DNA of 60,652 bases from a virus (Duplodnaviria; Caudoviricetes), in the IMG/VR virus record IMGVR_UViG_3300017989_000126, positions 1 through 60,652 of that record. One strand, written 5' to 3'. Position 1 is the first letter of the stretch. Every line of letters begins with the position of its first letter. A model generated the notes under the pieces. It saw only the letters and a list, made by a program, of their open reading frames with translations. It made no database searches and was not told where the DNA came from. Made by a program: the position numbers and the translations under genes. Shown here piece after piece: positions 1,981 to 41,416 of this stretch.

Positions 1981-2350
1981 TTAGTTCATCAGAAATTTAA
2001 CACATTCATTGATTACATCTTTTTTTTGACAATCAAAATCACTTTCCCAAACAACTAAAATTTCAAATCCGTTTTTTCTAGCTTTTTCTAATTTATTAAA
2101 ATCTTTTTCCCATACTTCTTTCGCTGTCATATTCCACACTCGAATAAACTCATCTTCTTTAAAATATTTTGGATTTGCGTGCCAAATATTTCCGTTAAAT
2201 TCTATAACTTTTTGTCATCAACAATTACAAAATCAAAATTTGTATTTGTGCCACATCCATATTCGTGATTTAATTCTCCAAAATAAACCCTTTTATCTTG
2301 CAAACACAATCTGTTGTATAAATCCCAAAATAGTTTTTGAGATTTCTTAG
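1981..2350 (-). pseudogene. Truncated, frameshifted Vsr/DUF559-like endonuclease remnant
   Basis: Minus strand reads ..FDFVIVDDKK(frameshift in A-run ~2209)VIEFNGNIWHANP..WEKD..K...GFEILVVWESD..FLMN*; no start found. Confidence 0.65.
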
Positions 2351-2390
2351 AATAATTTTGTCGATTAAGAGTTCAGTAATATATAACACT

Positions 2391-4550
2391 ATGTTCAAAA
2401 AATGGTTGATTGAAGAAGGCAAAAAAGAACTTGCCAAACAATTTAAACAAAAGCTACACGGTGTGCCTCAAGATCCAGATCACCACCCGGAAGGATCGGT
2501 GTTTTTTCATACACGCTTAGTTCGTAAAGCAATTCCTAATGCAATTCAAGAATTGAAATCTCTTCAACAAAACGATCCTGAACTCAGCTATGTACTTTCA
2601 AATTTGAATTTTGATCTTCCTCCAGAAGAAATGAATGTTTTGAAAATGGCAGCTTGGTTGCATGACATTGGAAAGCCTGCAACAACAACTGTTGGTGGAT
2701 TGCCTTTTTTGACACGTGCTCCATTGACTGGAAAAATACAGTCAATTGCACATCAAGATCCCAAAAACTACATGCCGGAAATTGAAGATCTGGAAAGCGT
2801 AGCCCCACCAGAAACAATTGCATTTTTCAAAAAACATGAACCTTTAATTCGATTCCTTGTCGATCACCACATGGACTTTGTGGCAGAAAAGTTTTCAAGA
2901 ACCATTGTAGATGAATTTTTCAGAGATGGAAAAATAATCAACGATGTTCGCATCAAACTTCTGCTTGCTTTAATGTGGTCTGATAAAATGGGTCGAGAGC
3001 CAGCAGAAATGGTGGTCAGAGGGATTGCAAAGAATGCTAAAAAGCTGGCTCTTTCTGCAAAGTTTGGCTTACAAAGACAAAAGAAACGAGACAATCAATC
3101 AAAGCCATTTGAAGGTGGACCAGATGCTTTCAGAGCTATGCTTCAGAAGCGTGGTGTGGATTCTGCAAGCATTGAAAAAGCGATACAAAACAAATTTGGA
3201 ACAAACGAATCATTTAGAACGTTTTTAGAAATGCAAGAAGCACAACCAACCACAATTGAAGCCAACATCCCCATGACGGACAAGGTCCATGTGGTCGCCA
3301 AACATTTAAAGAATGGCGACAATGGGGTTGTTGTGTATGCTGTTGGTGGTGCAGTACGGGATTTTCTGAATGGAGTTCAACCAAAAGACATTGACCTCAC
3401 CACCAATCTTTCTGAAGAAGATATAATCAAAAGATTAGAAACTCCAGAAGCTCGTAAAGATGGCATACGCATACATAAAAAAGAAAGTGTAGACACATTT
3501 GGTGTTGTGTTTGTGTTTGTTGATGGTCACGATTTTGAAGTTGCACCATTCCGAAAAGACATAGGCTCTGCTGATGGTCGTCGTCCTGAAGCTGTTGAAC
3601 GTGGCACTATTCAGGATGATGCTATGCGTCGTGATCTTACCATGAACAACCTCTATTATGATTTCGAGAAGAATTTGATTCTTGATTTCAATCCCAATGG
3701 GCAGGGAATAGAAGACGCACAAAATGGCGTTGCACGTCCTGTTGGCGATCCATTTGAACGATTCGACGAAGACAAAATTAGAGTATTTCGATTGGTTCGT
3801 TTCTTCTCTCGGTTTAATCCCGGAATTATCACTAATACCCTTGATGAAAGAACTCGAAAAGCTGTAGAGCATTACAAAGAAGTTCACAAACAAAAAGGAA
3901 TTTTCCCTGAGAGGATTTATGAAGAATTTACTGGTGGAATTAAACAGTCTCAAAACACCAGCATGTTCTTAAAAAGTCTTGCTGCACTTGATTTAATGCA
4001 AGCTGTATTTCCGGGAATGAATGTAGATGTTGAAGGCATTGATCGAATTGGCAACAGTAAAAAATTGGGTGTTATTTTAGCATGGTTATTGAGAAATAAC
4101 CCAAATGCCTCAAGGCAACTTAAGGCTTTAAAGTACCCTAATGTTGTCACTGATAAAGTCAATTTCCTGCATCAACTATTGGATAGATTTCAAGGGAATC
4201 CTGAAAGCATATCAAACATTCATGGTTTGATTAAACAACGTGACAGGTTCATCGATCCAAACTATGACACTGAGCAAAAAGAGCAAATGTCACAGGAAAT
4301 GAAACAGGACATTATTGAGTTCAGCCAAATGGCAGGAGTCGATTTATTGAATCTTGACCGTGCTACTCACTTTGCATCTTATAATGTGCCAAAAATTAAT
4401 GGCAATGAATTGATGCAAAGACTGGGAATTTCAGGGCCAGAAGTGGGCGCAGCAATGGATCAGGAAAGAGACAGACATTACAGTCAATCTTTCCAAGATT
4501 ACCTAAAGCAATCACTTCCCAAGTCTTCTGCGAATCGCATCCCGTCTTAA
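2391..4550 (+). CDS. cca: HD-domain / tRNA nucleotidyltransferase (CCA-adding, class II) fusion
   Basis: HHPEGSVFFHT and WLHDIGK (HD domain); VGGAVRD, DIDL, RRDLTMN, EDKIRVFR (class II NTase). Confidence 0.85.
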   Translation: MFKKWLIEEGKKELAKQFKQKLHGVPQDPDHHPEGSVFFHTRLVRKAIPNAIQELKSLQQNDPELSYVLSNLNFDLPPEEMNVLKMAAWLHDIGKPATTTVGGLPFLTRAPLTGKIQSIAHQDPKNYMPEIEDLESVAPPETIAFFKKHEPLIRFLVDHHMDFVAEKFSRTIVDEFFRDGKIINDVRIKLLLALMWSDKMGREPAEMVVRGIAKNAKKLALSAKFGLQRQKKRDNQSKPFEGGPDAFRAMLQKRGVDSASIEKAIQNKFGTNESFRTFLEMQEAQPTTIEANIPMTDKVHVVAKHLKNGDNGVVVYAVGGAVRDFLNGVQPKDIDLTTNLSEEDIIKRLETPEARKDGIRIHKKESVDTFGVVFVFVDGHDFEVAPFRKDIGSADGRRPEAVERGTIQDDAMRRDLTMNNLYYDFEKNLILDFNPNGQGIEDAQNGVARPVGDPFERFDEDKIRVFRLVRFFSRFNPGIITNTLDERTRKAVEHYKEVHKQKGIFPERIYEEFTGGIKQSQNTSMFLKSLAALDLMQAVFPGMNVDVEGIDRIGNSKKLGVILAWLLRNNPNASRQLKALKYPNVVTDKVNFLHQLLDRFQGNPESISNIHGLIKQRDRFIDPNYDTEQKEQMSQEMKQDIIEFSQMAGVDLLNLDRATHFASYNVPKINGNELMQRLGISGPEVGAAMDQERDRHYSQSFQDYLKQSLPKSSANRIPS

Positions 4551-10792: not shown

Positions 10793-10831
10793 CTTTACAG
10801 ATTGAGTAATCTGCCGTAGAATGTTTGTGTA
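10793..10831 (+). promoter_or_regulatory. Sigma70-type promoter for the NAD operon
   Basis: TTTACA (10794-99), 17 bp spacer, TAGAAT (10817-22); near-copy at 18382. Confidence 0.7.
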
Positions 10832-10877
10832 AAAAGCTGATTTTGAATCCGCCAGAACAATTTTTGGAGATCGAACA

Positions 10878-11741
10878 ATGAAACGTGTGGACCTGATCGT
10901 TATTGACGGTCAAAATGACTTCCTTGACCCAAAAGGTGCCCTTTATGTGCAGGATGCCGACAAGGAAGCAGAAAAGCTGGCGGCGATGATCGACCGTTTG
11001 GGCAACAAAATCTACAAGATTCACGCCACGCTGGACAGTCACTATCCAGTTGATATTGCTCATCCAGTCATGTGGATTGATTCACACGGAAACAATCCTG
11101 ATCCTTTCACTATCATCACAGCCGATGATGTTCGAAATGGAAAATGGCGTTGTACTCTGTTGGGTAACATTCCAGACCCAGTTACAGGTGAAACAATCAG
11201 CTATCAACAGCGTTGCCTGAACTACGTGGAAGAACTGGAAAAGAATGCACGATATCCACTGTGCATTTGGCCTCCGCACTGTCTGATTGGTTCATGGGGA
11301 CACAACGTGTATCCACCTCTTTTCGAGGCATACACACGTTGGATCGAAAAGAGTCGATCACCATGGGTTGACTACGTTGTCAAAGGCGACAACGTGTGGA
11401 CCGAACATTATTCTGCTATCAAAGCAGATGTACCTGATCCTTCTGATCCAAGAACGCAGCTTAATGCTGACCTGTTGAACACAATCAACAAAGCAGACAT
11501 TGTTCTTTGGTCTGGTTGGGCTGGATCGCACTGTCTCGCCAATACTGGCAATGATGTTGAATCATTCCCGGCTGGTGATGAAATCTACAAGAAGTCAATT
11601 CTTCTTGAAGACCTGAGTGCTCCGGTGACTTCCCCTATTACGGATGTGAATGACATGTTCGCTCAGTTGCGAACTGACTTCATCGACAACATGCGGAATA
11701 AGGGAATGCAGATCATGAACAGCACTGATGTTCTCACATAA
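10878..11741 (+). CDS. pncA: Nicotinamidase (isochorismatase family)
   Basis: IDGQNDF, D-x-H, WPPHC, VKG, SHC catalytic motifs; NAD gene context. Confidence 0.85.
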   Translation: MKRVDLIVIDGQNDFLDPKGALYVQDADKEAEKLAAMIDRLGNKIYKIHATLDSHYPVDIAHPVMWIDSHGNNPDPFTIITADDVRNGKWRCTLLGNIPDPVTGETISYQQRCLNYVEELEKNARYPLCIWPPHCLIGSWGHNVYPPLFEAYTRWIEKSRSPWVDYVVKGDNVWTEHYSAIKADVPDPSDPRTQLNADLLNTINKADIVLWSGWAGSHCLANTGNDVESFPAGDEIYKKSILLEDLSAPVTSPITDVNDMFAQLRTDFIDNMRNKGMQIMNSTDVLT

Positions 11742-11785
11742 CATCAGTCTTTCATTCACACACTTCACAATTTTGGAGAAAAGAT

Positions 11786-12535
11786 ATGAGCAGCAAAGAT
11801 TTAAGTCAGGGACTCACTGACTTCGAAGTACCGGGTGCAAATTTTGGTTTTACCGGTGCGAACATTGATGATCTTGCATCAATGGAACAGACTCTTTACG
11901 GTCTGGTTGTGGATGAAAGTGGCTCAACAATGCCATTTCGACCAGAAATGTCTAAGGCCACAGTGGCAATTGTCGATTCTCTGAGAGAGAGCCCACGGGC
12001 AGACAATCTCATGTATCGAATGACCCACTTTTCTAATGGGGTTCGTGAAATTCACGGTTTCAAAGAACTTCAGAATTGTCATCCCGGCGATTATGACGAT
12101 CTGTTTGAACAGACAGGTCAGACTGATCTTTATGATGCAACACTTGAAATGTCAGAAGCTATTCGCATCTATGGCGAAAAGCTTGCCGAACAGAGCTATA
12201 TGGCCAATGGCATTCTTGTGGTGATCACCGATGGTTGTGATTTTCCCGGCTCTACTCACGGCATGGGTGATGTCAAACGATCTTTTGAGCAGGTTATTCA
12301 GGGTGAAATTCTTGAATCCATGAACACCATTTTGCTCGGAGTCAATATTCATGAGGCTCATGTAAAGCAGAAGCTTGAAGAGTTTCATCGAGAAGCTGGC
12401 TTCACTCAGTTTGAATGTGTCGAAGACGCTTCAAAATCAACAATGGCCAAACTGGCACAGTTTGTTTCTGACAGCGTCAGTTCTCAGTCGCAGGCTTTGG
12501 GAACTGGGGGAGCTTCACAAAGTCTTACGTTCTAG
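11786..12535 (+). CDS. vWA domain protein (TerY-like)
   Basis: MIDAS DESGS, TxLYDA, ITDG. Confidence 0.8.
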   Translation: MSSKDLSQGLTDFEVPGANFGFTGANIDDLASMEQTLYGLVVDESGSTMPFRPEMSKATVAIVDSLRESPRADNLMYRMTHFSNGVREIHGFKELQNCHPGDYDDLFEQTGQTDLYDATLEMSEAIRIYGEKLAEQSYMANGILVVITDGCDFPGSTHGMGDVKRSFEQVIQGEILESMNTILLGVNIHEAHVKQKLEEFHREAGFTQFECVEDASKSTMAKLAQFVSDSVSSQSQALGTGGASQSLTF

Positions 12536-12661
12536 GAGAGTACCAACTGGGCAAGGCATTGCTTGGTTGCAGGATGAATACACGTGGAAGTTACAGTCTT
12601 CTGAATGGACTGGGTCTTAGCGGACCATGCAGGGTTCAAATCCCTGCCATCCGAAATCTCC
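12535..12661 (+). ncRNA. tRNA-like structured RNA (non-canonical)
   Basis: T-arm GCAGGG-TTCAAAT-CCCTGC; variable-arm-like GGTC..GACC; anticodon-arm-like CAGTC..GACTG; GGATG/CATCC stem; extra 5' hairpin; outer GGAGA/TCTCC stem. Confidence 0.6.
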
Positions 12662-12664
12662 TTT

Positions 12665-12702
12665 AACACACCGGGGCACCTCCCCCGGTGTGTTGTTTTT
12701 TC
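12665..12702 (+). terminator. Intrinsic terminator
   Basis: ACACACCGGGG..CCCCGGTGTGT followed by a T-run. Confidence 0.8.
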
Positions 12703-12714
12703 AGGAAAAGTGCT

Positions 12715-12762
12715 ATGAACAATCTCATCTCCAGATCGCTTTTCGACAACGACCTGTATAAG
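12715..12762 (+). pseudogene. Orphan 5' end of pncB
   Basis: MNNLISRSLFDNDLYK, compared with RSILDSDLYK at the start of intact pncB. Confidence 0.7.
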
Positions 12763-12800
12763 AATGACAAAAACTTATACAAAACAAACTACTATAGTGT

Positions 12801-13481
12801 ATGGAACATTTCATCTATGCACTAAAACAACAAGGTAGCGAATTGCCTTTCTATATTGGAAAATCAAACAATCCAAAGAAGCGGAAAAAACGCCATCTTT
12901 ATGATGCAAAGAACTTGATGCTGAATTACCCAGTTCATAACAAATTGAGAAAGCTGTTAAGAGACGGACTTGGAATTGATCTTGAAATTCTGGAATCGAA
13001 GCTAACCGAAGATGAAGTTGATGATAGGGAGGTTTATTGGATTTCTTTTTATCGTACCAAAACCAAATTGTGTAATTTAGCCAATGGTGGAGAAGGCGGC
13101 AAAGGGTTGACCGAAGAGACAATTGAAAAAATAAAGAAAGCCAACATTGGACAAAAACGATCTGAAGAAACTCGAAAACGAATAAGTGATTCCCGTAAAG
13201 GGATTGTATTTTCAAAAGAACACAAACAGAATCTTTCAAAAGCACGGAAGAAAAGAATTGTAACTGAAGAAACTCGTCGGAAAACAAGTGAAACCTCTAC
13301 TGGTTCGATTAACATCAAGAAATATAAACTTACTGATCCAAACGGTGGGATTCACTTCACTGACAGAGGGTTGTCAGATTTTTGTCGCAAGAACAATTTA
13401 ACACCAGCTAATTTGTCAAAAGTTCTAAAGGGCGAACGCACACACCATAAAGGTTGGAGGATTGAATATGTCGAACCATGA
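12801..13481 (+). CDS. GIY-YIG homing endonuclease with NUMOD3 repeats
   Basis: FIYAL..FYIGKS, R/E/N catalytic pattern, NLANGGEG, SEETRKRIS repeats. Confidence 0.9.
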   Translation: MEHFIYALKQQGSELPFYIGKSNNPKKRKKRHLYDAKNLMLNYPVHNKLRKLLRDGLGIDLEILESKLTEDEVDDREVYWISFYRTKTKLCNLANGGEGGKGLTEETIEKIKKANIGQKRSEETRKRISDSRKGIVFSKEHKQNLSKARKKRIVTEETRRKTSETSTGSINIKKYKLTDPNGGIHFTDRGLSDFCRKNNLTPANLSKVLKGERTHHKGWRIEYVEP

Positions 13482-14646
13482 CCCCGCTGTTCGATCAATA
13501 TTAGATTCGGACTTATACAAATTTACAATGATGGCAGCAGTCTTGAAGCACTACGAAAACACACCGGTTCAGTATCGATTTAGCAATCGTCGGAAAGAAG
13601 GTAAATTCAATAATGCTTTTGTTTATGAATTTGAATCTGAAATTGATCGTCTTTGTGGATTAAAAGTAGAAGATAAAGAACTAGATTGGTTTTCTAAAAC
13701 CTGTCCTTTTCTCACGGATCAGTATTTCGAATTTCTGCGAAACTACCGTTTTAACAAAAATGAACTTAGATGGTCAGTTGAAGATGGTGAATTAAACCTG
13801 TCTGTCAATAGCTCATGGGAACTAGGTATTTTGTGGGAAGTACCTCTTATGAGCATAATTTCAGAATGCTTCTTTCGTACATGTGACACTGAATGGGAGT
13901 TTAATGTTCTTGAGCAAGAAAAAAGAATTCGAGACAAAGCTAAAATTCTAACCGATGTTACATTTGCAGACTTCGGCACTCGACGCCGAAGGTCTTATGA
14001 TGTTCAAGATTTGGTTGTAAAAACACTTGTGAATTGTGCTCCAAATTTTGTAGGCACAAGCAACGTCTCACTCGCCATGAAGCACAACACCAAGCCAATT
14101 GGAACTTTAGCACATGAGTGGATCATGGCGACCAGCGTTCTCATGGGACTTCGCCACGCCAACAAGTTTGCACTGGATGCTTGGAGTGAAGTATTCAACG
14201 GCGATTTGGGAATTGCATTAACGGACACTTATGGAAGCAAAGCTTTCTTCGAGGATTTTGACGGATATCTGGCTCGATTGTTTGATGGAGTTCGTCATGA
14301 TAGCGGCGATCCTTTTGAATTTGCCAGAAAAGCGATCACTCACTACAAGTCACTGGGAATCAATCCCATGTCAAAAACCATCGTGTTTAGCGACGGTTTG
14401 ACAGCCAAACTTGCTGCGGAAATCAACGAAAGATTCAAAGATGTCATCCGATGCTCTTTCGGCATCGGAACTCACTTCACGAATGATTTCCATAACAGCA
14501 AGGCTCTGAACATGGTCATCAAACTTTGGTCTTGTGAAGGGGTTCCACTGGTGAAGTTGGGAGATGACGAAGGGAAAGCCATTGGCGATCCTGATGCCGT
14601 TCGAGTTGCTCGATGGGTGTTCAACGACAAACCACTGGACAATTAA
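13468..14646 (+). CDS. pncB: Nicotinate phosphoribosyltransferase
   Basis: DLYKFTM, DFGTRRR, GTSN, GTLAHEW, LTDTY, RHDSGDP, FSDGL, FGIGT. Confidence 0.95.
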   Translation: MSNHDPAVRSILDSDLYKFTMMAAVLKHYENTPVQYRFSNRRKEGKFNNAFVYEFESEIDRLCGLKVEDKELDWFSKTCPFLTDQYFEFLRNYRFNKNELRWSVEDGELNLSVNSSWELGILWEVPLMSIISECFFRTCDTEWEFNVLEQEKRIRDKAKILTDVTFADFGTRRRRSYDVQDLVVKTLVNCAPNFVGTSNVSLAMKHNTKPIGTLAHEWIMATSVLMGLRHANKFALDAWSEVFNGDLGIALTDTYGSKAFFEDFDGYLARLFDGVRHDSGDPFEFARKAITHYKSLGINPMSKTIVFSDGLTAKLAAEINERFKDVIRCSFGIGTHFTNDFHNSKALNMVIKLWSCEGVPLVKLGDDEGKAIGDPDAVRVARWVFNDKPLDN

Positions 14647-14647
14647 A

Positions 14648-14977
14648 ATGGAACAACTTCTCTGTCACTTGCTTGGAGACTATCTCCTGCAAACATCATG
14701 GATGGCTTTGAACAAAAGCAAGCGATGGTGGCCTGCAATTGTTCATGTGTCAATTTACACAAGCGTGTTCCTGTTGTTGACAACAAGCATCCCGGCATTG
14801 CTTGTCATTGGCGGAACACACCTGCTGATTGATCACTATCAGTTTCCCAAGATTTGGTTCAATGCAGTTCGTGGAAAAGAGGATTCCCCGGAATGGTTTC
14901 TGATGTGGCTTTACGTCATTCAGGACAACTCTTGGCATCTGATCATTAACTTCTTGGCGTTGAGGTATCTGACATGA
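14648..14977 (+). CDS. DUF3307-like membrane protein
   Basis: HLLGDYLLQT, HxxIY, THxxID, DNSWH motifs. Confidence 0.75.
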   Translation: MEQLLCHLLGDYLLQTSWMALNKSKRWWPAIVHVSIYTSVFLLLTTSIPALLVIGGTHLLIDHYQFPKIWFNAVRGKEDSPEWFLMWLYVIQDNSWHLIINFLALRYLT

Positions 14978-16950
14978 ACAAATATGGATTTGTAAGAGTT
15001 ACTGCTGTTTCACCTCGGGTTTACATTGGCAATCCAGAACAAAACCTCTTCGAAGCACATGGTGAACTTGCTCGTTCAGACGATTCAGATATTATTTTGT
15101 TTCCTGAACTCAGCATGACAGGATACACTTGCGGTGATTTGTTTGGTCAGGAAAGTTTGACTAACAATGCGTTGAAAGAAACGGTTAGGTTAGCTGATGG
15201 TGTTGGCAACCAGTTGGTTGTTGTTGGATTACCATTTGTGTTTGAATCTAATCTCTACAACTGTGCTGCTGTCTTGAACAATGGTCGCATCGTGGGGATT
15301 GTCCCCAAGCAATATTTGCCCACCTACAAAGAGTTTTACGAAAAGAGGTGGTTTCAGGCTGGTGAAGGTCTACCAAACACAGAAGTTGAAATTGAAGGTC
15401 GTGCTGTTCTTTTTGGGCCGAATCTCCTATTCAGCTACGAAGGAGTCAAAGTTGGCATTGAAATTTGTGAAGATGTCTGGATGCCCATTCCACCTAGTTG
15501 TTATCACACTATTGCTGGTGCAAACGTCATCCTCAATCTCTCTGCCAGCAATGAGACCGTTGGAAAATCTGATTACCGCACAGATTTGGTGAAAAATCAG
15601 TCTGGTCGCTGCGTGTGTGCTTATGCATACGCCAGTTCCGGGCCAATGGAATCCACCTCTGATCTTGTGTTTGGTGGACATTCTCTAATCGCTGAAAACA
15701 GTCATATTCTGGCTGAGTCACCTCGTGTGGGCAAAGGTAATCACAGTGCATCTGTGATTACAGCAGATGTTGACTATGAAAAACTGAATCATGAGAGACG
15801 CTCATCTACGTCTTTCGGTGACTCTGCATCATGTGTCACTAATCACGACACAATTCCCATTGAACTCGTAAATCGTCCTGAAGTTGTTACTCCGATCAAA
15901 CGAGTGATTGCCAAACATCCATTTGTCCCAAGTGACAAAGAGCGGTTGCGGGATCGTTGTGAGGACATCTTCGGCATTCAGACAATGGGTCTGGTGGGTC
16001 GATTGGCCAACATCAGAGGTCCAATCAATATTGGAATCTCTGGTGGTCTCGACTCAACGTTGGCATTGCTGGTTGCCATCAAAGCCTGTGATCACTTCAG
16101 GTTTGATCACAGGCGAATTCAAGGCATCACCATGCCCGGATTCGGAACCACCAAGAAGACCAAGAAGAATGCCAAGAAACTGATGAAGGGTCTGGGGATT
16201 ACTCAGAAAGAAATAGACATCAGGCCGATGGCCCTTCAGGTGTTCAATGACATGGAACACACTCCATTTGGCATCGGCAGCACACCTTTGACTTTAGAAG
16301 ACCTTCAAGGTGGGCTTGAAAGTCTTGAACCGGGTGCTCAGGACTTGGTATTTGAAAATGTGCAGGCACGTGTCAGAACCCTGACGCTGATGTCTCATGG
16401 GTTTGTTCTGGGAACCGGTGATCTCTCCGAGCTTGCTCTGGGCTGGTGCACCTACAACGGTGACCACATGAGCATGTATAACGTCAACTGTTCGATCCCA
16501 AAGACTCTGGTCAAGTTCTTGGTGGAGTATGTTGCCAACAATGATCCTGCCTTCAAAAAGGTCAAAGATACGTTGTTGGATATTGTGGACACTGAAATCT
16601 CTCCAGAACTTTTGCCACCCGGCAAAGACGGAGAGATCGCACAGTCCACAGAAGACAAACTTGGGCCTTACGAACTGCACGACTTCTTCCTGAGTCACTT
16701 CATTCGCAATGGTTCAAGCCCTCAGAAGATTCTTCTTTTGGCTTGTCAGGCATTTGAAAGTGATTACGAGCCTGACTTCATCAAAGTAACTCTCATCACT
16801 TTTTTGAAGAGATTCTTTGCAAATCAGTTCAAAAGAAATTGTGTGCCAGATGGCCCAAAAGTTGGATCAGTGAGTCTTTCGCCTCGTGGCGATTGGCGAA
16901 TGCCTTCTGACGCTGATGTCAGCATGTGGATTAAGGAACTTGAAGAATGA
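14974..16950 (+). CDS. nadE: Glutamine-dependent NAD+ synthetase
   Basis: Nitrilase triad FPEL/EKRWF/EICED; SGGLDST; ENVQARVR; GDLSELALGW; SLSPRGDWRMPSD. Confidence 0.97.
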   Translation: MNKYGFVRVTAVSPRVYIGNPEQNLFEAHGELARSDDSDIILFPELSMTGYTCGDLFGQESLTNNALKETVRLADGVGNQLVVVGLPFVFESNLYNCAAVLNNGRIVGIVPKQYLPTYKEFYEKRWFQAGEGLPNTEVEIEGRAVLFGPNLLFSYEGVKVGIEICEDVWMPIPPSCYHTIAGANVILNLSASNETVGKSDYRTDLVKNQSGRCVCAYAYASSGPMESTSDLVFGGHSLIAENSHILAESPRVGKGNHSASVITADVDYEKLNHERRSSTSFGDSASCVTNHDTIPIELVNRPEVVTPIKRVIAKHPFVPSDKERLRDRCEDIFGIQTMGLVGRLANIRGPINIGISGGLDSTLALLVAIKACDHFRFDHRRIQGITMPGFGTTKKTKKNAKKLMKGLGITQKEIDIRPMALQVFNDMEHTPFGIGSTPLTLEDLQGGLESLEPGAQDLVFENVQARVRTLTLMSHGFVLGTGDLSELALGWCTYNGDHMSMYNVNCSIPKTLVKFLVEYVANNDPAFKKVKDTLLDIVDTEISPELLPPGKDGEIAQSTEDKLGPYELHDFFLSHFIRNGSSPQKILLLACQAFESDYEPDFIKVTLITFLKRFFANQFKRNCVPDGPKVGSVSLSPRGDWRMPSDADVSMWIKELEE

Positions 16951-17804
16951 ATACAGGATCGTTTTTTACCATTGGTAGCACTCACGTTGTTTGTGAAGAC
17001 TATGCCTTACATGGGGTCGCAGAAGATCCTTATGTGATTCTTTCTGATGGCTGCTCTAACGGAGGTGTGCGAATTGATACAGACTTTGGCTCTCGGCTAC
17101 TTTGCAAATCAGCCGAGAATCATTTGTCAATATTGCCATACAATTCATTTGGATTTAAAGAACGTGTCATTAGCACAACGGTGACACAAGTGCAAACTTA
17201 TTTCAACATGGATCTTGCATGCCTTACTGCTACTTTGCTGTTGGCTAGAAAATATGATGACTTCATTTACACCATGTTAATTGGAGATGGATATATTGGG
17301 GGAAAACGACGTGATGGACGATGGATGCTTTATGAAATAGAATATGAAAAAGGAGCACCTTATTACCTTAAATACAGTTGGAATCCCAAAGACAAAGAGG
17401 CTTATTTTAATCGATTTGGAAGCATTGGAACACTTAGAACCTTTTCTTGGAGAGAAGGTGGAGATATTGAAACATCCAGTATGGAATTTGATCTGAAAGA
17501 CGATCATCCAGAGCATTTTGAATTCGATTTTAAAATTGATGAATATGAATTTGTATTCATTGCTTCTGATGGATTGAGTCGTTTTTATCATCAGGCAACT
17601 ACGCCAGATAAATCAATGATTCCCATTCCGATAACAACCGTTGTGCCTATTTTGTATGGATTCAAAGGATATCAAACGTCATTTGTCGAAAGGCAAATGC
17701 ATTGGGTCATGAACACCAAAAAGCCAAGATCACTTTCTAAAACACTGGGCGTTGATGTAAAGTGTTCAGATGATTTCAGCACCGGAGTAATTCACTGTGG
17801 CTAA
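16947..17804 (+). CDS. PP2C-like protein phosphatase (TerY-P type)
   Basis: G-x-x-H..CED, LSDGCS, IGDG, ASDG, DD motifs. Confidence 0.8.
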   Translation: MNTGSFFTIGSTHVVCEDYALHGVAEDPYVILSDGCSNGGVRIDTDFGSRLLCKSAENHLSILPYNSFGFKERVISTTVTQVQTYFNMDLACLTATLLLARKYDDFIYTMLIGDGYIGGKRRDGRWMLYEIEYEKGAPYYLKYSWNPKDKEAYFNRFGSIGTLRTFSWREGGDIETSSMEFDLKDDHPEHFEFDFKIDEYEFVFIASDGLSRFYHQATTPDKSMIPIPITTVVPILYGFKGYQTSFVERQMHWVMNTKKPRSLSKTLGVDVKCSDDFSTGVIHCG

Positions 17805-18408
17805 ATTTGCGATTTTTGGAGGATCTTTTGATCCTCCCACATATGCACATAAAATGGCTGGAGAACTTGTCTATGCTGAAACAGACATAGATCAATTCTG
17901 GTACATGCCTTGTTGCAGCCACAAATTCAATAAAGACTCTGAAGATTCTTGTCATCGATTAACCATGGTAGAAAGAATGGTTTATCAGATAAACGAGAAC
18001 TACCAAGGATTTCCTTTTCGTGAATGCACTTACGAAATCGACAACAAAACCAAAGGCCATCTAATTGAAACGATGGAAGCTTTAGAAAAAGAAAATCCAA
18101 AAGATGAATTTGTGATCGTTGTGGGTTCAGATTGTGCCAATGATATCAAGAAAAAATGGCATCGTGGCAAGGAACTTATCGAACGATATCCATTCATTGT
18201 GTTGAAAAGAAGTGGATACGAATTGTTAGCTTCTTGGCCATACGAAAAACCAAATCAGGTTTTGGAATTTGGTGTAAGCTATAGCTCAACAACGCTTCGT
18301 AAAGCTTTATCAGAAGGCGATTTTGAGCACGCTCAACGAAGACTCTATCCTGCAATTTTCAATTACATTAAGAAGAACAAACTTTACAGTCAGGAAAACC
18401 AGACGTAA
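17797..18408 (+). CDS. nadD: Nicotinate-nucleotide adenylyltransferase
   Basis: FGGSFDPPTYAH, VGSD, W, SSTTLR. Confidence 0.9.
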   Translation: MAKFAIFGGSFDPPTYAHKMAGELVYAETDIDQFWYMPCCSHKFNKDSEDSCHRLTMVERMVYQINENYQGFPFRECTYEIDNKTKGHLIETMEALEKENPKDEFVIVVGSDCANDIKKKWHRGKELIERYPFIVLKRSGYELLASWPYEKPNQVLEFGVSYSSTTLRKALSEGDFEHAQRRLYPAIFNYIKKNKLYSQENQT

Positions 18409-18420
18409 AATGTTTGTGTA
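18382..18420 (+). promoter_or_regulatory. Sigma70-type promoter for kinase-SPFH genes
   Basis: TTTACA (18383-88), 17 bp spacer, TAAAAT (18406-11), followed by GTTTGTGTA as at 10823. Confidence 0.7.
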
Positions 18421-18441
18421 CACTTTTACGGGAATACATTC

Positions 18442-20154
18442 ATGAAACTTACCATTCGAGGCACTGGTGATAAAGTCAATATCACCAAGACACATGTAGT
18501 CGCCAAAGGTGGTGAGGGTGTCATCTATATTAAAGATGGCGTTGTCTACAAAATCTGTCATGCTGGGAAAATGATTCCCGATGGAAAATTTCAAGAACTG
18601 GCTGTTCTCAATCATCCCAACATCATCAAGCCAGAGCAAGTTTTACTGGATTCTAAAGGAAAACCAGTTGGCTATACCATGAAGCTGGTTCCTAATTCAG
18701 TGCCACTTGCTCAAATTCTAACAAAATCTTACCGAGATCGAGAGAACGTTACATTCGATCAAATGGGTAAGTTAATACAGGATATTCGTGATGGCATTGA
18801 ACACATCCACTCCAAGGACATTCTCCAAGTAGATGGTAATGAGATGAACTACATGGTTTCGTTGGATTACGAAACTGTGTCATTCATTGATGTGAATAGT
18901 TTTCAAACCAAACATTATCCAGCAGAGGCTTTAATGCTAAGCGTGCGAGATTGGCACGTTGAAAAGAAAAACGGAGTCTACATTTGGACAGAGCTGAGTG
19001 ATTGGTTTTCTTTCGCAATTATCTCGTTCTACATGTGGACCGGAATTCATCCCTTCAAGGGAGCACATCCTCGTTTCAAAAATGTCAAAACGAGGATGGA
19101 AGATCAAATGAAGGCAAATGTTTCAGTTTTAAACTCTGAAACAAAATACCCTGCTGCTGCTGTTTATCCTTTTGATGTCATTCCTGATGTTTACATGCAG
19201 TGGTACAAAGCTCTGTTTGAACGTGGCGAACGACATCCGGCCCCACAGGACTTTCATGGCAAAATCCTTCTTGTCGCCAAAGTCAAAGAAATCAGTGGCA
19301 GTGATAACTTCGAAATCAAAGAAATTCATGATTTTGGGGAAATGCTGGTTGGTTTTATAGGTCGCCCCGGAACAGAGGTTTCTATTGGACCTGAACATGT
19401 GTTTGTAAATCAGGCCCCTAAGCCAAAACCATACAAGAAAATCCGTGCAGGCATTACAAATGTGATGCAAATTCCTGTCTCAGCTCATCTTGAGAACAAT
19501 ATCGTTCATTTGACAAATCTAAAAACTCAGGAAAAAATCGATTATCAAGGGAATGGAAGTGATCTGATGAGTTGCGAGGGGCGTTTGTACGTTCAAAGCA
19601 ATAATCGAATCGTTGAAATTCAATTCATTGAATCTGGCAAAAACATTATGGCGGCACCGAAAGTCGTTTGTGATATTTTGCCCAATGCAACGCAGATGTT
19701 TCAGGGAACAATCATCCAGTATCTGTTCGAAGGATACTTTGTCTCTGTATTCCCAAAATCAGGCATTGCTCAACAGTTCCATATTAAAGAACTTGATGAA
19801 TATCAAATTACTGAAGCGAAATATGAAAATGGGGTTCTGATGGTTGTTGGAATTTCCAAAGGCAAGTATGATCGCTTCGTGATCCGTTTTGAAGAAAGAT
19901 GGGGCAATTATGAAATAGCCCGTAAAATTGAAGACATCATTCCCACTGGTTTGAACTTCACAGTTCTGGAGAATGGGGTTTGTGTTTGTATTACGGAAGA
20001 AGAGAAAATCGAATTGTTCTCTTCCCGTTCGGGATCGCAAAATGTTAAATCGATCTCTGACCCGGTTATAGAAAGCGACATGAGGTTATGTCGAGTTGGG
20101 TCACAAGTTATGTTTGCCAAAGGCAACAAGCTGTTCAAGCTGTCTATGAAATAA
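18442..20154 (+). CDS. Ser/Thr protein kinase (TerY-P type) with beta-rich C-terminal domain
   Basis: KGGEG, VYK, DGNEMN, FIDVNSFQ, SDWFSF, GIHPFKG. Confidence 0.85.
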   Translation: MKLTIRGTGDKVNITKTHVVAKGGEGVIYIKDGVVYKICHAGKMIPDGKFQELAVLNHPNIIKPEQVLLDSKGKPVGYTMKLVPNSVPLAQILTKSYRDRENVTFDQMGKLIQDIRDGIEHIHSKDILQVDGNEMNYMVSLDYETVSFIDVNSFQTKHYPAEALMLSVRDWHVEKKNGVYIWTELSDWFSFAIISFYMWTGIHPFKGAHPRFKNVKTRMEDQMKANVSVLNSETKYPAAAVYPFDVIPDVYMQWYKALFERGERHPAPQDFHGKILLVAKVKEISGSDNFEIKEIHDFGEMLVGFIGRPGTEVSIGPEHVFVNQAPKPKPYKKIRAGITNVMQIPVSAHLENNIVHLTNLKTQEKIDYQGNGSDLMSCEGRLYVQSNNRIVEIQFIESGKNIMAAPKVVCDILPNATQMFQGTIIQYLFEGYFVSVFPKSGIAQQFHIKELDEYQITEAKYENGVLMVVGISKGKYDRFVIRFEERWGNYEIARKIEDIIPTGLNFTVLENGVCVCITEEEKIELFSSRSGSQNVKSISDPVIESDMRLCRVGSQVMFAKGNKLFKLSMK

Positions 20155-20164
20155 GGAGAACCTA

Positions 20165-21724
20165 GTGCGAGATTTCAGTGAAAATCCAATTGATGTACGC
20201 AATGCCATGAGGAAATTAGCCCCATGGATATTTGTCATTGGCATTGTGTTTATGGTTGGAATGACTTATCTCATCTATTCACAATTCCGAATCGATGTGC
20301 CAACCAAACATTTTGCCGTCCTGATCAAAAAGACCGGCAAAAATATTCCCAATGACGCAGAATGTGCCCCGGATGAATCTTACAAAGGGGTTCAAAAAGA
20401 GCTTCTATTGGAAGGGCGATATTTCCGCAACCCATTTGAATGGGACTGGGAAGTTCATCCCTATGATGAAATTGCGTCAAATGAACTTGGTGTACTTGTA
20501 AAGCTCAATGGCGAAAACCTCCCTTACAGACACTTTGTTGCGTCAAAAGATATTGAAAAGGGAATTGTCGAAGACGTGCTTCGACCGGGACGTTATCCAA
20601 TCCATCCCTACACCGAAAAACTTTTGCGATTCAAACCAATCACAATTCCTGCTGGACACAAAGGTGTTGTCACGTTACTAGCTGCTCCAATGCCAGAAAA
20701 TCCCAACGAACTTCTTGTAGAAGAAGGACGCCGTGGGGTTCAGAAAAAGACACTTGATCCCGGAACGTATTATGTGAACCCATATGTGACACGGATCAAT
20801 GAAATCGATTGTCGGTCTCAACGATTCAACCTTTCCGAAGGTGGTGACATGGGATTCCCGTCTCTGGACGGATTCTGGGTCCAATTGGATGGAATTGTTG
20901 AATTCCGTGTTAACCCCGAGAAAGCCGCTGAAGTTTTTGTGATCTACAATGAAACGTTCAATGACAAAAATGACATTGAACGAGTAGATGAAGAAATTGT
21001 CACAAAGATTATTCTTCCTAATGCAAGAAGTTTCTGCCGTTTGAAGGGGTCAAGCAACAAAGGTCGTGACTTTATCGGTGGCCAAACTCGTATTGAATTT
21101 CAGAAGGCTTTTGCAGAAGCAATGGAATCTGAATGTGAGCCTTTGGGTATTGAAATCGTCCAAGCTTTGATCACAAAGATTTATCCACCAGAAGCAATTG
21201 CTGGACCTGTTCGTGATCGTGAAGTTGCACGTCAGCAATTGCGACAGTATGGACAGCAGATTCTCCAACAGGAATCTGAGATCAAACTTGCTGTTGAAAA
21301 GCAAAAAGTTGTTCAAAGAACAGAACTGCGTGCTGCGGATCAATCTGTTGTAACGGAAACTGTGGCTGCTAAGCAGAAGCAGCAGGTTGCTGTCACTAAA
21401 GCAAATGAACAACGAGAAGTTGCCAGATTTAAACTTGATGCAGCAAAAGATGAAGCAGAAGCGATCATTGCTCGTGGAGAAGCTGCTGCTTCTGTTATCA
21501 AATTCGACAATGAAGCTATTGCTGCGGGTTGGGAGCGTGCCATCAAAGCCTTTGGTGGAGATGGAAGTGCATATGCTGATTATACTCTTTGGGAAAAGAT
21601 TGCACCGAGTTTTCGAAAAATCATGACCAATACAAACAACAGTCCTTTGATGGAACACTTCGGTTTGTCTGGCCCAACACCAGAAAAACCTGAAACTGTC
21701 GAACAAGCCACACCTGCTGAATAA
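20165..21724 (+). CDS. SPFH/band-7 family membrane protein
   Basis: TM anchor, LxPGxYxxNP repeats, FPSLDGF, coiled-coil tail. Confidence 0.85.
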   Translation: MRDFSENPIDVRNAMRKLAPWIFVIGIVFMVGMTYLIYSQFRIDVPTKHFAVLIKKTGKNIPNDAECAPDESYKGVQKELLLEGRYFRNPFEWDWEVHPYDEIASNELGVLVKLNGENLPYRHFVASKDIEKGIVEDVLRPGRYPIHPYTEKLLRFKPITIPAGHKGVVTLLAAPMPENPNELLVEEGRRGVQKKTLDPGTYYVNPYVTRINEIDCRSQRFNLSEGGDMGFPSLDGFWVQLDGIVEFRVNPEKAAEVFVIYNETFNDKNDIERVDEEIVTKIILPNARSFCRLKGSSNKGRDFIGGQTRIEFQKAFAEAMESECEPLGIEIVQALITKIYPPEAIAGPVRDREVARQQLRQYGQQILQQESEIKLAVEKQKVVQRTELRAADQSVVTETVAAKQKQQVAVTKANEQREVARFKLDAAKDEAEAIIARGEAAASVIKFDNEAIAAGWERAIKAFGGDGSAYADYTLWEKIAPSFRKIMTNTNNSPLMEHFGLSGPTPEKPETVEQATPAE

Positions 21725-21756
21725 CAAAAAGAAAATAAACGAAAGGATTATAAATC

Positions 21757-23340
21757 ATGAAATGGCGAACAAAGTTTCTGCTAACTTCACTTCTGATAAC
21801 AGTTATCGGAGCGTTTACATTACACTGGATGATTAACCGTGTTTATGTTGAGCCCGGTTACAGCTTGCAGCTTCGCTACAAAGGTTCACTGCTGGCTATG
21901 GTCGGCGTGCCTGTCAAGAAAGCCAAACCCGGACACTTTGCAGAAGAAGGTGAAGTCGGTGTTCTCAAAGAAATGCGTGGACCCGGACGGCACTTCTATT
22001 GCCCACTATGGTGGGAAACTGAAATCGTCCCAGACAAAATTGTAATGCCGGGACAAATCGCTGTTGTAAAGAGTAACCTTGGTGAGCCTCTTCCATCGGG
22101 TGAATACCTCGTGGAGGGTGATCTTGGAGAAACGAAACACAAAGGGATTTTGAGAAAATCTTTTGGTCCGGGACGTTATCGTGTGCATCCTTATGCATAT
22201 GAATTTGATGTCATCGAAAGACCTGTTCGAAGCGAAAATGGAAAACACGCTGGGTTTATTTCAATACCAACTGGTTATGTTGGTGTTGTGACAAACAAAG
22301 CATCAAATCCAATCACAGAAGAGCCAAAAGGTGTACTCGATGATGTTCTTCCTCCCGGTTTATATCCAATCAATGGACGTGAACAGGAAGTTGACATTGT
22401 TGAAATTGGATACCGTGAGGCATCTATCAACGTAAAAACTCAAGTTGAAGCTGATGGTTCTGTGAAGGTGGATGAAGCAGGTGAGCCTGTTATTGCCAGT
22501 TTGACAGAAGGAATTAACTTCCCAAGTAGCGATGGCTTTCCGATTCTAATGGACTTTACAGCAATTTGGGGAATTCTTCCTGATGCAGCGCCGAGAATTA
22601 TTCGAACATTCGGCAACATTGGTGCTGTAGAACAAAAAGTGGTGATGCCTCAAATTGAATCGATTTGTCGAAACAATGGCTCAGCCCACTCTGCTGTTGA
22701 TTTGCTTGTTGGTGAGTCTCGACAAAAATTCCAAGAAGACACTGAAATTGAATTTCACCGTGTTCTTGATGATAAGCAGATTCAACTTCTGTATGGTTTG
22801 GTGCGTCACATCTACATTCCGAAAGAAGTTCGTCAGCCAATTCAAACAGCATTTATTGCCGATGAATTAAAGTTGACTCGGGATCAGGAACAGATCACCA
22901 CGCAAAAAGAAGCTGAACTTCGTGAAATTGAAAAGCTGAAAGATGTGGAAGCTGAAAAAATTGATGCTGACACGAAGAAGCAGGTTGCTGAGATCATAGC
23001 ACTTGGTCAAAAGCAAGTTGGAGAAACCGAAGCTGAAACAATTCAATTGGTTGCTGAAATCGATAAAGAAACAGCCACAATTGAAGCTGAATCGACTGTG
23101 GTGATTGGTCAAGCCAAAGCTAAAGCAAACCAATTGGAAGAAGAAGCTAAAGCCCAATTGTTTGAATTGGCCGTACAAGCTTTCGAAAGACCGAATGCCT
23201 ACAATCGATATATCTTTGCCGATGGTTTGCCAGAAGATCTGGAATTTGAATTTCTCTATGCAGGCGAAGGTACTCTTTGGACTGACATGAAGAACTTTGG
23301 AATTCGAGGGAACGTCGATCTGAACCCTGAAAAGAAATAA
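21757..23340 (+). CDS. SPFH/band-7 family membrane protein (partner paralog)
   Basis: TM anchor, GPGRH/PPGLY repeats, FPSSDGF, coiled coil. Confidence 0.85.
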   Translation: MKWRTKFLLTSLLITVIGAFTLHWMINRVYVEPGYSLQLRYKGSLLAMVGVPVKKAKPGHFAEEGEVGVLKEMRGPGRHFYCPLWWETEIVPDKIVMPGQIAVVKSNLGEPLPSGEYLVEGDLGETKHKGILRKSFGPGRYRVHPYAYEFDVIERPVRSENGKHAGFISIPTGYVGVVTNKASNPITEEPKGVLDDVLPPGLYPINGREQEVDIVEIGYREASINVKTQVEADGSVKVDEAGEPVIASLTEGINFPSSDGFPILMDFTAIWGILPDAAPRIIRTFGNIGAVEQKVVMPQIESICRNNGSAHSAVDLLVGESRQKFQEDTEIEFHRVLDDKQIQLLYGLVRHIYIPKEVRQPIQTAFIADELKLTRDQEQITTQKEAELREIEKLKDVEAEKIDADTKKQVAEIIALGQKQVGETEAETIQLVAEIDKETATIEAESTVVIGQAKAKANQLEEEAKAQLFELAVQAFERPNAYNRYIFADGLPEDLEFEFLYAGEGTLWTDMKNFGIRGNVDLNPEKK

Positions 23341-23360: not shown

Positions 23361-23394
23361 AAAAGGCCGCTGTTCCAAAACAGCGGCCTTTTTT
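23361..23394 (+). terminator. Intrinsic terminator closing the operon
   Basis: AAAAGGCCGCTG..CAGCGGCCTTTTTT. Confidence 0.85.
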
Positions 23395-23752: not shown

Positions 23753-24214
23753 TCACTGGACCAGTGACCATTCCCTAAATGTCAAAGCTCTATTTCGCAT
23801 AACGTGAAAATAACGATCTAATTGAGCTTCGAATTTTGGATGAAGATTCAAATCTTTAATCTTATCCAAATCAACCCATTTGTATTCTGAATGCTCTTCG
23901 CTCAGAGATACGTCAAATGGCTCTTTAATGCGATAAAGATAAGTAGTCCAACGATGTGTTCCATCTTGGCTTTCAACGGCATCTATTCGATTTCCGGGGA
24001 TATTTGGAATACCTGTCTCTTCTTCTGTTTCACGAATAGCACAGGCAATCATCGATTCGCCTTTTTCGGCTTTTCCGCCCGGCAATCCCCAAGTTCCCTG
24101 ATGATCTCCTTCATCTCTCTTAAGTAAGAGAGTTTGCTTGCCATCAGTGAACATGATGCCAGCTCCTCTTTTGCCTTTGTATCTTGATCCGCCCTTACCA
24201 ATTCTATGATACAT
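23753..24214 (-). CDS. Nudix hydrolase
   Basis: GGKAEKGESMIACAIRETEEETG Nudix box. Confidence 0.92.
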   Translation of the reverse strand: MYHRIGKGGSRYKGKRGAGIMFTDGKQTLLLKRDEGDHQGTWGLPGGKAEKGESMIACAIRETEEETGIPNIPGNRIDAVESQDGTHRWTTYLYRIKEPFDVSLSEEHSEYKWVDLDKIKDLNLHPKFEAQLDRYFHVMRNRALTFREWSLVQ

Positions 24215-40081: not shown

Positions 40082-40687
40082 ATGGCTAACAAACCTATGG
40101 GAATCGGCATTATCGGCCAGCCGGATATCGTCTTTAAAAGACAATTCCGTTGGACTTTTGAAATCCAAGGTTTTTGTAACAACGAAAAAAACGTAGTTCC
40201 AGAACACTTTGTGATGACGACAGGCCGTCCAAACCTCAGTATTGAGGAAACACAAATCGACCACTTGAACGCCAGAACATGGATTCCGGGTAAAGCTCAG
40301 TGGGAAACTATCACAGTAACATATATCGATGTGGCACATGACCAAATGCGAATGCTTTGGAACTGGCTTGCAACAACCCATGATTTCACTGATCCAGTAA
40401 ATCTTACCATGGGTAATAAGCGAGACTGGCATGCAGTCGGTGTTCTGAACATGTACGATGGTTGCGGTGTTCTTCTGGAAACTTGGGAAATGAGAAACAT
40501 GTGGCCAACCGCCGTAAACTTCGGCGAGCTTGACTACTCAAGTTCTGAATACGCAACAATTGAATTAACGCTTCGTTACTCAGATGTGGCTTACAGATCA
40601 CTGTGTCCAGAATTCACTCCAGAAGCTTGCTGCTCTGGTTGTGGTACTGGTACGACTGTTACCCAGCCAAGTGTCGATTTTGTTTAA
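40082..40687 (+). CDS. Tail tube protein, paralog 2
   Basis: Same motifs; FGELDYS, IELTLRYS. Confidence 0.88.
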   Translation: MANKPMGIGIIGQPDIVFKRQFRWTFEIQGFCNNEKNVVPEHFVMTTGRPNLSIEETQIDHLNARTWIPGKAQWETITVTYIDVAHDQMRMLWNWLATTHDFTDPVNLTMGNKRDWHAVGVLNMYDGCGVLLETWEMRNMWPTAVNFGELDYSSSEYATIELTLRYSDVAYRSLCPEFTPEACCSGCGTGTTVTQPSVDFV

Positions 40688-41400: not shown

Positions 41401-41416
41401 ATCTATGGAGGCTCAA

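Follow-up and report, generated by a model that had tools for sequence, protein, structure and literature searches.

Introduction

This study concerns a set of four genes, coding for a nicotinamidase-like enzyme, a von Willebrand factor A (vWA) protein, a PP2C-type phosphatase and a Ser/Thr kinase with a predicted beta-propeller tail, which lie among genes for nicotinamide adenine dinucleotide (NAD+) synthesis on a 60,652-base stretch of viral DNA (Caudoviricetes; IMG/VR record IMGVR_UViG_3300017989_000126; the whole stretch is hereafter called the window). Among the closest described systems is the TerY-P triad, in which a TerY-like vWA protein and a PP2C phosphatase are combined with a Ser/Thr kinase that bears a fused Zn-ribbon; as described, the Zn-ribbon-fused kinase belongs to the CoCoNuT-linked form of TerY-P, and the defence form of Gao et al. 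has an OB-fold fusion (PMC11090510). Another is the E. coli operon yegL (vWA)-yegK/pphC (PP2C)-yegI (Ser/Thr kinase), for which it is reported that PphC dephosphorylates autophosphorylated YegI (bioRxiv 10.1101/303594).

Much of the conflict between phages and bacteria centres on NAD+ itself, and the phage pathways NARP1-3, which reconstitute it as a counter-defence, are reported with experimental proof (PMC13464706). Jumbo phages are described as carrying pncB-nadD-nadE clusters that form a Preiss-Handler route (PMC11662467), phage G has a PncA-like gene (PMC12484599), and vWA domains figure as predicted chaperones in the ARG-centred systems under NrtR or WYL control described by Iyer et al. 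(2022, PMC9503650). No published description of the four-gene unit was found in the literature searched, which did not extend to the supplementary tables of PMC11662467 and PMC9503650.

An earlier reading of the window, made from the sequence alone and hereafter called the original prediction, took the vWA, PP2C and kinase genes for a TerY-P-type triad, interleaved with NAD genes and followed by a pair of SPFH genes. It proposed that these form one functional unit, either a phospho-switch gating NAD salvage on a membrane SPFH scaffold, or a captured defence island used for superinfection exclusion.

A conserved four-gene cassette

The invariant unit, found in large phages and in cellular genomes, consists of the genes for the nicotinamidase-like enzyme, a vWA protein with a metal-ion-dependent adhesion site (MIDAS), PP2C and the Ser/Thr kinase-propeller. 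I read the window locus as a deamidating NAD+ salvage system built around this cassette, in which the kinase and PP2C would control nicotinamide recycling and so sustain NAD+ during infection, and I lean, if only slightly, towards this reading being correct. In the window the four genes are:

10878..11741, + strand: nicotinamidase-like (PncA-like) cysteine hydrolase, 287 aa (from the family profile against PDB and the catalytic residues)
11786..12535, + strand: MIDAS vWA protein, 249 aa, with a Ser-rich C-terminal tail (from an AlphaFold2 (AF2) model, Foldseek and alignment)
16947..17804, + strand: PP2C-type Ser/Thr phosphatase (PP2C_2, 29.6 bits)
18442..20154, + strand: Ser/Thr kinase (residues 1 to about 270) with a predicted beta-propeller (about 290-570), 570 aa (Pkinase, AF2, Foldseek)

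Co-conservation was counted from both ends of the cassette. On the kinase side, an alignment used as query gave 76 loci, 28 viral and 48 from metagenome-assembled genomes (MAGs); as a single-sequence query, the kinase found no viral locus. Counts are given for the 60 of these 76 loci in which 4 kb or more of sequence precedes the kinase. Nicotinamidase-like and vWA genes are present in 57 of the 60, and the exact order nicotinamidase-vWA-PP2C-kinase is seen in 45. Two loci are permuted, with PP2C-kinase followed by nicotinamidase-vWA, two have PP2C-kinase only, and one contig begins inside the vWA gene.

Counted from the nicotinamidase, a relative is encoded by 227 viral contigs, of which the best 80 were taken; 74 of these have at least 6 kb downstream. 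Of the 74, 70 have the vWA gene, 68 have PP2C and 68 the kinase; the three occur together in 65. Because some contigs belong to both sets, loci whose gene DNA is identical were merged, which reduced 156 loci to 135 groups (87 viral, 48 MAG); all four genes occur in 73 of the 87 viral groups. The nicotinamidase-vWA and PP2C-kinase pairs travel as blocks, and the order of the four genes persists in relatives whose kinases are only 25-53% identical, which argues that the arrangement is beyond chance.

The kinase has 766 homologues at E<=0.001. Query coverage in the 120 best-listed ones is 98-100%, apart from a single case with 82%. A tree of 68 kinase rows, made by a quick method after eight rows had been dropped for length, truncation or duplication, places cellular sequences in clusters by phylum and viral ones in at least five places; the window kinase groups with those of L010 and L002 with a support of 100. 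As the tree is quick and its root arbitrary, no direction of transfer is claimed.

The four proteins

The 287-aa protein has inserts relative to canonical PncA. It has no match in Pfam, and its NCBIfam nicotinamidase match is limited to residues 3-55. When a profile of 36 relatives was compared with the PDB, the top matches were solved nicotinamidases (2h0r, 3.7e-18; 29iv, 3.3e-13; 1ilw; 3pl1), with the WPxHC motif aligned between the profile and these structures. Residues D10, K169, C219, D53, H55 and H62, as well as WPPHC (H134), are conserved in the 36 aligned sequences; I take D10, K169 and C219 to be the nicotinamidase triad, and D53, H55, H62 and WPPHC to provide the metal ligands. The protein is classed as nicotinamidase-like, with a D-K-C triad and a metal site, and the corresponding activity is predicted.

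The 249-aa protein has no match in Pfam, NCBIfam or PADLOC, even at E<=10, nor among PDB sequences, even with the family profile. Its AF2 model (pLDDT 89.7) was compared with the PDB by Foldseek, and the matches listed are mostly integrin I / vWA domains, with E-values of 5e-9 to 7e-7. The MIDAS residues D43, S47, T113 and D149(-G150) are invariant in 39 sequences, and it is by this motif and the modelled fold alone that the protein is classed as a vWA protein. Its C-terminal tail, FVSxSISSQSQALGTGGxSQxLxF, is strongly conserved in the same alignment of 39 relatives, with S230 and S235 invariant.

The PP2C protein scores 29.6 bits with PP2C_2, for a cut-off of 24, and its metal-binding Asp residues (D18, D34-G35, D114, D208-G209, D275-D276) are invariant in 53 family members. 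The kinase scores 29.8 bits with Pkinase, below the 31.7 cut-off, but reaches 32.2 with neighbouring matches. Residues G23, G24, G26, K37, E52, D131, N136 and D150 are invariant in 30 aligned sequences, the catalytic ones being K37, E52, D131, N136 and D150. Both enzymes are thus predicted to be catalytically intact. The AF2 model of the kinase (pLDDT 90.7) consists of a kinase domain followed by about 27 beta-strands over residues 290-569. Foldseek places LRRK2 (kinase plus WD40) first, followed by the propellers of clathrin, PALB2, Nup133 and BamB and by the kinases ASK1 and IRAK4; the C-terminal part is probably a seven-blade-like beta-propeller. A search of the ESM Atlas with the propeller gave no usable match.

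A kinase carried by a phage could have another purpose. The T7 kinase gp0.7 phosphorylates host proteins, and the window kinase may likewise serve host takeover, with PP2C limiting its toxicity and the link to NAD genes being mere co-regulation in an early operon. The predicted integrity of both enzymes would suit this, the propeller could bind host targets, and a promoter-like site (18383..18411, a consensus match) stands directly ahead of the kinase gene. Yet cellular contigs reaching 1 Mb and flanked by non-phage genes (L037, L062) carry these four genes too, a setting without any foreign host, and host takeover does not account for the constant company of the nicotinamidase-like and vWA genes. 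I consider a host-takeover kinase improbable.

NAD and ADP-ribose genes around the cassette

All flanking genes were scanned with Pfam in five loci: a 1-Mb Chthonomonadaceae contig (L037), a second 1-Mb contig (L062), a 974-kb Moduliflexus scaffold that has PP2C-kinase only (L056), and two Candidate Phyla Radiation (CPR) contigs (L066, L073). The neighbours are non-phage genes in all five. Both CPR contigs have the order NrtR, nicotinamidase-like, vWA, PP2C, kinase. L066 continues with a canonical Isochorismatase/PncA, nadD, pncB, ADP-ribosylglycohydrolase and nadE, and L073 with pncB and nadE.

For 55 further loci, the 105 nearest upstream and downstream ORFs were scanned. An NrtR-type gene is the nearest neighbour in 12 of the 55 (L025, L032, L033, L038, L047, L048, L051, L058, L059, L061, L064, L067), so that with the two CPR contigs an NrtR-type gene (NUDIX plus NrtR_WHD) directly adjoins the cassette in 14 related cellular or viral loci. 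Genes of ADP-ribose metabolism directly adjoin it in eight loci: PARG in L036 and L060, Macro in L045, PARP in L037 and L039 (PARP+WGR in the latter), ARH in L066 and L070, and NADAR in L025. Other nearest neighbours are pncB (L009, L020, L023, L067), a NAD synthase fragment (L043) and a NAD-dependent ligase (L019).

L025 combines two of these features: on this contig of 451,925 bases, classed as viral in IMG/VR, the NrtR-type regulator lies directly upstream of the cassette and NADAR directly downstream. It is either a phage with its own NAD regulator or a misclassified contig.

A cultured bacterium, amenable to genetic work, provides a further case. On a megaplasmid of Variovorax sp. SRS16 (L158, NZ_LR594667.1, 638747-640407) the nicotinamidase-like and vWA genes form a pair, annotated in RefSeq as 'cysteine hydrolase' and 'hypothetical protein', with NUDIX, macro and RecX genes on one side and, on the other, a nucleoside 2-deoxyribosyltransferase-domain gene and NAD kinase.

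The four genes are linked, embedded in NAD/ADP-ribose neighbourhoods, and keep the catalytic or metal-binding residues in all four of their proteins. The proposal of one functional unit tied to NAD salvage gains support both from the co-conservation and from the NrtR, PARG, Macro, PARP, ARH and NADAR neighbours in cellular contigs.

The ADP-ribose neighbours allow for a different role. In an ADP-ribosylation conflict, the nicotinamidase would clear nicotinamide, which as a reaction product inhibits ADP-ribosyltransferases, sirtuins and PARPs; the vWA protein would act as a peptide-binding chaperone for ADP-ribosylated proteins, and kinase and PP2C would form a gate. The phage would thereby support its own NAD-consuming modifications or undo those of its host. 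The eight loci listed above speak for such a module, as do the NrtR/WYL-regulated ARG systems with their predicted vWA chaperones, as described in PMC9503650, and the second, canonical PncA of L066. In the window, however, the interleaved partners are biosynthetic (PncB, NadD, NadE), Pfam scans of the 60 kb contain no ADP-ribosyltransferase, macro or ARH gene, and the words 'nicotinamidase' and 'PncA' are absent from the text of PMC9503650. I regard this alternative as unlikely, although it deserves some weight.

A predicted deamidating route to NAD+

In the window, three further NAD genes are inserted into the cassette:

13468..14646 (ORF from TTG 13462), + strand: PncB, nicotinate phosphoribosyltransferase (NF003704; ATG 13468 preceded by GGAGGA)
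14974..16950, + strand: NadE, glutamine-dependent NAD+ synthetase (NF002730; CN_hydrolase and NAD_synthase domains)
17797..18408, + strand: NadD-like nicotinate-nucleotide adenylyltransferase (CTP_transf_like, 56.7 bits)

PncB passes the nicotinate phosphoribosyltransferase subfamily model NF003704 (461 bits, cut-off 379) and the equivalog TIGR01514; its match to phrog_448 is weak (3.4e-16). NadE passes NF002730 with 806.6 bits (cut-off 473). The NadD-like protein passes Pfam CTP_transf_like and has 12 NCBIfam matches, all of them to nicotinate/nicotinamide nucleotide adenylyltransferase or adenylyl/cytidylyltransferase-family models and all under their cut-offs (the best being TIGR00482, 94.9 against 112.45). 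Together with the PncA-like enzyme, these proteins would give the window a complete deamidating (Preiss-Handler) route, as judged from their predicted functions.

In this route, the nicotinamidase-like enzyme would convert nicotinamide to nicotinate, PncB would form nicotinate mononucleotide, NadD nicotinate adenine dinucleotide, and NadE NAD+. Kinase and PP2C may constitute a reversible phospho-switch that tunes the deamidation of nicotinamide, the entry step of salvage; phosphorylation would most likely fall on the Ser-rich tail conserved in the vWA protein, and the kinase's propeller would serve for docking or sensing. The expanded phage cluster may keep NAD+ high during infection by a large genome. 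It could also permit recovery from host NADase-type defences that release nicotinamide, by analogy with NARP1-3 as they are described (PMC13464706).

The three biosynthetic genes vary from locus to locus, about one third of loci having such an insert: pncB, nadE or nadD is found in the flanks of 21 of 63 cassette loci of the kinase-side set, and of 27 of 74 of the nicotinamidase-side set. Lack of co-conservation between the triad and NAD genes had been named as grounds for abandoning the original prediction. With a nicotinamidase-like gene beside the triad in 57 of 60 and in 65 of 74 loci, and the biosynthetic genes at the frequencies just given, the association is upheld. The interleaving seen in the window, with pncB and nadE between vWA and PP2C and nadD between PP2C and kinase, recurs in three viral groups (L003, L006/L007 and L013/L026) and in the end-cut L010, whose kinases are 37-52% identical to that of the window.

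Several observations weigh against deamidating salvage under a phospho-switch. That the nicotinamidase-like protein deamidates nicotinamide is a prediction, and since L066 also has a canonical PncA, the cassette enzyme may be non-redundant with it or have another substrate. The genes pncB, nadD and nadE are missing from the fetched flanks of two thirds of phage loci. PP2C was not seen by tblastn in 10 of the 60 kinase-centred loci (although L073, one of these, has one by Pfam), and the Variovorax locus has no annotated kinase or PP2C, which means that enzyme and vWA protein can occur as a pair with no switch beside them. In the window, nicotinamidase-vWA and PP2C-kinase are parted by a strong terminator-like hairpin (12664-12695), and Pfam scans of the 60 kb contain no NrtR_WHD protein or NrtR gene. 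Finally, the phosphorylation target of the switch is an inference, and the anti-defence role is pure inference.

If the salvage reading is right, the locus points to a fourth, deamidating NAD+ route in phages, after the three shown experimentally (PMC13464706), and, which is more unusual, to control of the first salvage enzyme by protein phosphorylation. A more far-reaching version is that bacteria control NAD+ salvage at a point so far unrecognised, namely nicotinamidase-vWA under its own PP2C/kinase-propeller switch, and that huge phages built on it a fourth (deamidating) pathway of NAD+ reconstitution, which would recycle the nicotinamide set free by NADase immunity at a pace that outstrips NAD+ depletion by the host; this I put forward tentatively, and would expect it to fail rather than to hold. 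The four-gene unit occurs in at least 73 distinct groups of viral contigs and is also found, under the ADP-ribose sensor NrtR, in several phyla of bacteria, so that a single biochemical study could explain a widespread and poorly annotated gene set. The cassette is also a tractable model for the role of vWA-PP2C-kinase triads.

Gene layout and lineage-specific additions

The remaining features of the locus are:

10794..10822, + strand: promoter-like site (TTTACA-17-TAGAAT), 10 of 12 consensus matches, preceding the nicotinamidase-like gene
12559..12655, + strand: tRNA-like element, 97 nt (ARAGORN tRNA-Cys(ACA), weak cloverleaf)
12664..12695, + strand: intrinsic-terminator-like hairpin, 13-bp stem plus T-run, splitting nicotinamidase-vWA from the remaining genes
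12801..13481, + strand: GIY-YIG homing endonuclease (Pfam GIY-YIG, NUMOD3, phrog_314)
14648..14977 (ORF from 14564; ATG 14648 is the likely start), + strand: DUF3307 small membrane protein (Pfam DUF3307, phrog_6676, hydrophobic segment)
20165..21724, + strand: SPFH/Band-7 protein 1, with an N-terminal membrane helix and a coiled-coil-like tail (Band_7, 97.1 bits; hydropathy)
21757..23340, + strand: SPFH/Band-7 protein 2, with an N-terminal membrane helix (Band_7, 71.6 bits; hydropathy)
23361..23392, flagged on both strands: terminator hairpin, 14-bp stem plus T-run, common to the convergent NUDIX gene
23753..24214, - strand (convergent): MutT-type NUDIX hydrolase (Pfam NUDIX)

Every gene named in the original prediction is present on the + strand in the order given there, except that its region began at 11786, downstream of the pncA-like gene. 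The overlapping start and stop codons were likewise verified: there is an ATGA overlap at nadE/PP2C, another at DUF3307/nadE, and an 8-nt overlap at PP2C/nadD. With 1 nt between the pncB stop and the likely DUF3307 start, the genes pncB-DUF3307-nadE-PP2C-nadD are all joined by overlaps or 1-nt gaps. The terminator that had been placed after the SPFH pair also proved to be there, at 23361-23392; the other strong one, at 12664-12695 ahead of the endonuclease, is absent from the original prediction.

Consensus matches suggest how the genes may be transcribed. The terminator that follows the vWA gene and the tRNA-like element suggests two transcription units, and the promoter-like site ahead of the kinase a third. 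Promoter-like sites are not enriched in the region, with 12 found for 29.3 expected, so that the site at 10794-10822 is weak evidence. No inverted repeat that could serve as an operator was found ahead of the nicotinamidase-like gene.

Lineage-specific additions, standing outside the conserved machine, are the homing endonuclease, the tRNA-like element, DUF3307 and the SPFH pair. SPFH genes lie near the cassette in just two of the 87 viral groups (L011, L108) and in none of the 48 MAG groups, which does not bear out the idea of an SPFH membrane scaffold. Compared with an HflK/HflC-type pair, both proteins have a Band_7 domain and an N-terminal hydrophobic helix, and neither has a match in NCBIfam; with SPFH1 as single query, no viral relative was found. 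Neither DUF3307 nor the endonuclease is conserved at its place in the cassette loci.

A tRNA gene at 12559-12655 was not accepted, and the element is termed tRNA-like only: ARAGORN alone calls it, the cloverleaf is weak, and Rfam has nothing at gathering threshold (sub-threshold, ar14 with 26 bits against 58.8 and tRNA-Sec with 14.4 against 47).

A 42-kb contig from a relative about 98% identical, which turned up in two runs belonging to one study, has the entire arrangement with the two SPFH genes. On this contig, 528 other letters stand in place of 12762-14047, that is, of the endonuclease and the 5' part of pncB. On this evidence the homing endonuclease is a recent mobile insertion, and the presence or absence of 12762-14047 is consistent with recent homing and co-conversion.

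A NUDIX gene lies downstream of the kinase in L002, L003, L004, L010, L011 and L014 (by tblastn), and is thus recurrent in the nearest phage relatives. That of the window (23753-24214) matches the PADLOC candidate family PDC-S07 (7.9e-16); a role as a candidate ADP-ribose or NAD(H) pyrophosphatase would fit the locus. The small ORFs that immediately follow the kinase in 19 loci were considered as a fifth conserved gene and rejected, being unrelated to one another (1 of 171 pairs homologous) and without a match in the window.

A protein of a 727-737 aa type, with a poly(A)-polymerase / CCA-adding head domain, is encoded near the cassette in the window (2337-4550, +), and immediately upstream of it in two relatives (L012:4519-6702, L021:4569-6752).

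Setting of the window

The 60,652 bases are estimated by CheckV to be 12% complete, which suggests a genome of several hundred kb, and the window encodes T4-like sheath, tube and baseplate genes. Among GenBank phages, the kinase matches only three records, all from uncultured phages of 462-595 kb; a kinase relative from phage G is not among these matches, and megablast of the cassette region against GenBank phages gave no match. Positions 10800-20700 also occur in public metagenomes of sediment and seawater, on contigs of runs that belong to several studies. With possible source samples excluded, the fraction of sampled words of this region is 0.94 in one run and 0.45 in three runs of another study.

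Several other genes of the window were recorded. A histidine kinase at 53082-54521 (-) has an ETR1_N domain (the ethylene-receptor-type N-terminal domain, 3e-25) followed by PAS, HisKA and HATPase_c, which is unusual for a phage. A second vWA protein (49734-50729, +; Pfam VWA, 1.2e-8) adjoins an RNA ligase gene (50836-51477, +), both distant from the cassette. Three gp19-type tail-tube paralogues stand in succession at 40082-41938 (+), and towards the end of the window lie genes for a RIO-type kinase-like protein (56205-56681, +), CTP synthase (56668-58311, -) and a class II ribonucleotide reductase-like protein (58582-60564, -).

Comparison with known systems

The TerY-P triad, as described, shares with the window the same three domain superfamilies and a design in which a MIDAS vWA protein is at the centre of a phosphorylation switch (PMC11090510), and the window vWA protein has a conserved Ser-rich C-terminal tail. 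The kinase tail is nevertheless a predicted beta-propeller, not a Zn-ribbon or OB fold, the nicotinamidase-like enzyme is a fixed fourth member of the phage and cellular cassette, and the neighbours are NAD/ADP-ribose genes rather than Ter, restriction or CoCoNuT genes. The TerY models in PADLOC match neither the window vWA protein, nor the window PP2C, nor any of the 39 family vWA proteins; PADLOC v2 presumably includes models for TerY-P. On account of the propeller tail, the fixed fourth gene, the missing TerY match and the NAD/ADP-ribose context, the cassette is TerY-P-like in design but not a member. The original prediction as a whole is borne out in part.

The same evidence bears on the idea of a captured TerY-P-type defence triad, used for superinfection exclusion, for which the NAD genes would be mere neighbouring auxiliary metabolic genes. 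The combination of vWA, PP2C and Ser/Thr kinase would fit, and the kinase has weak PADLOC matches to PD-T4-6 (3e-6) and mad6 (3.6e-6). Against this, and beyond the differences just listed, the cellular kinase clades follow phyla, and the cellular neighbourhoods, with NrtR and NAD/ADP-ribose genes, are metabolic and not defence islands. A captured defence island finds no support in these results, and I hold it to be the least probable of the readings considered here.

The E. coli yegL-yegK/pphC-yegI operon has the same three domain types in one operon, a likeness drawn from the described domains and not from sequence. Unlike for the window cassette, no nicotinamidase partner or NAD context is mentioned in the available part of its description (bioRxiv 10.1101/303594).

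The regulons of NAD metabolism under the NAD repressor NrtR and the NrtR/WYL-regulated ARG systems resemble the cassette in that NrtR adjoins it in 14 related loci, although the window itself has no NrtR gene and no inverted repeat ahead of the nicotinamidase-like gene, and the cassette goes unmentioned in the available part of PMC9503650.

The jumbo-phage NAD+ clusters are like the window in having pncB-nadD-nadE, but the words kinase, phosphatase and VWA are absent from the text of PMC11662467, so far as it is available. NARP1-3 use other enzymes (ADP-ribose-based recycling, nicotinamide mononucleotide (NMN) ligation, and PnuC with NadR), and no regulatory triad is described for them in the available part of PMC13464706. 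NARP2, which consists of NadV and an NMN adenylyltransferase, relies on a nicotinamide phosphoribosyltransferase, whereas the enzyme of the window is of the nicotinate phosphoribosyltransferase type.

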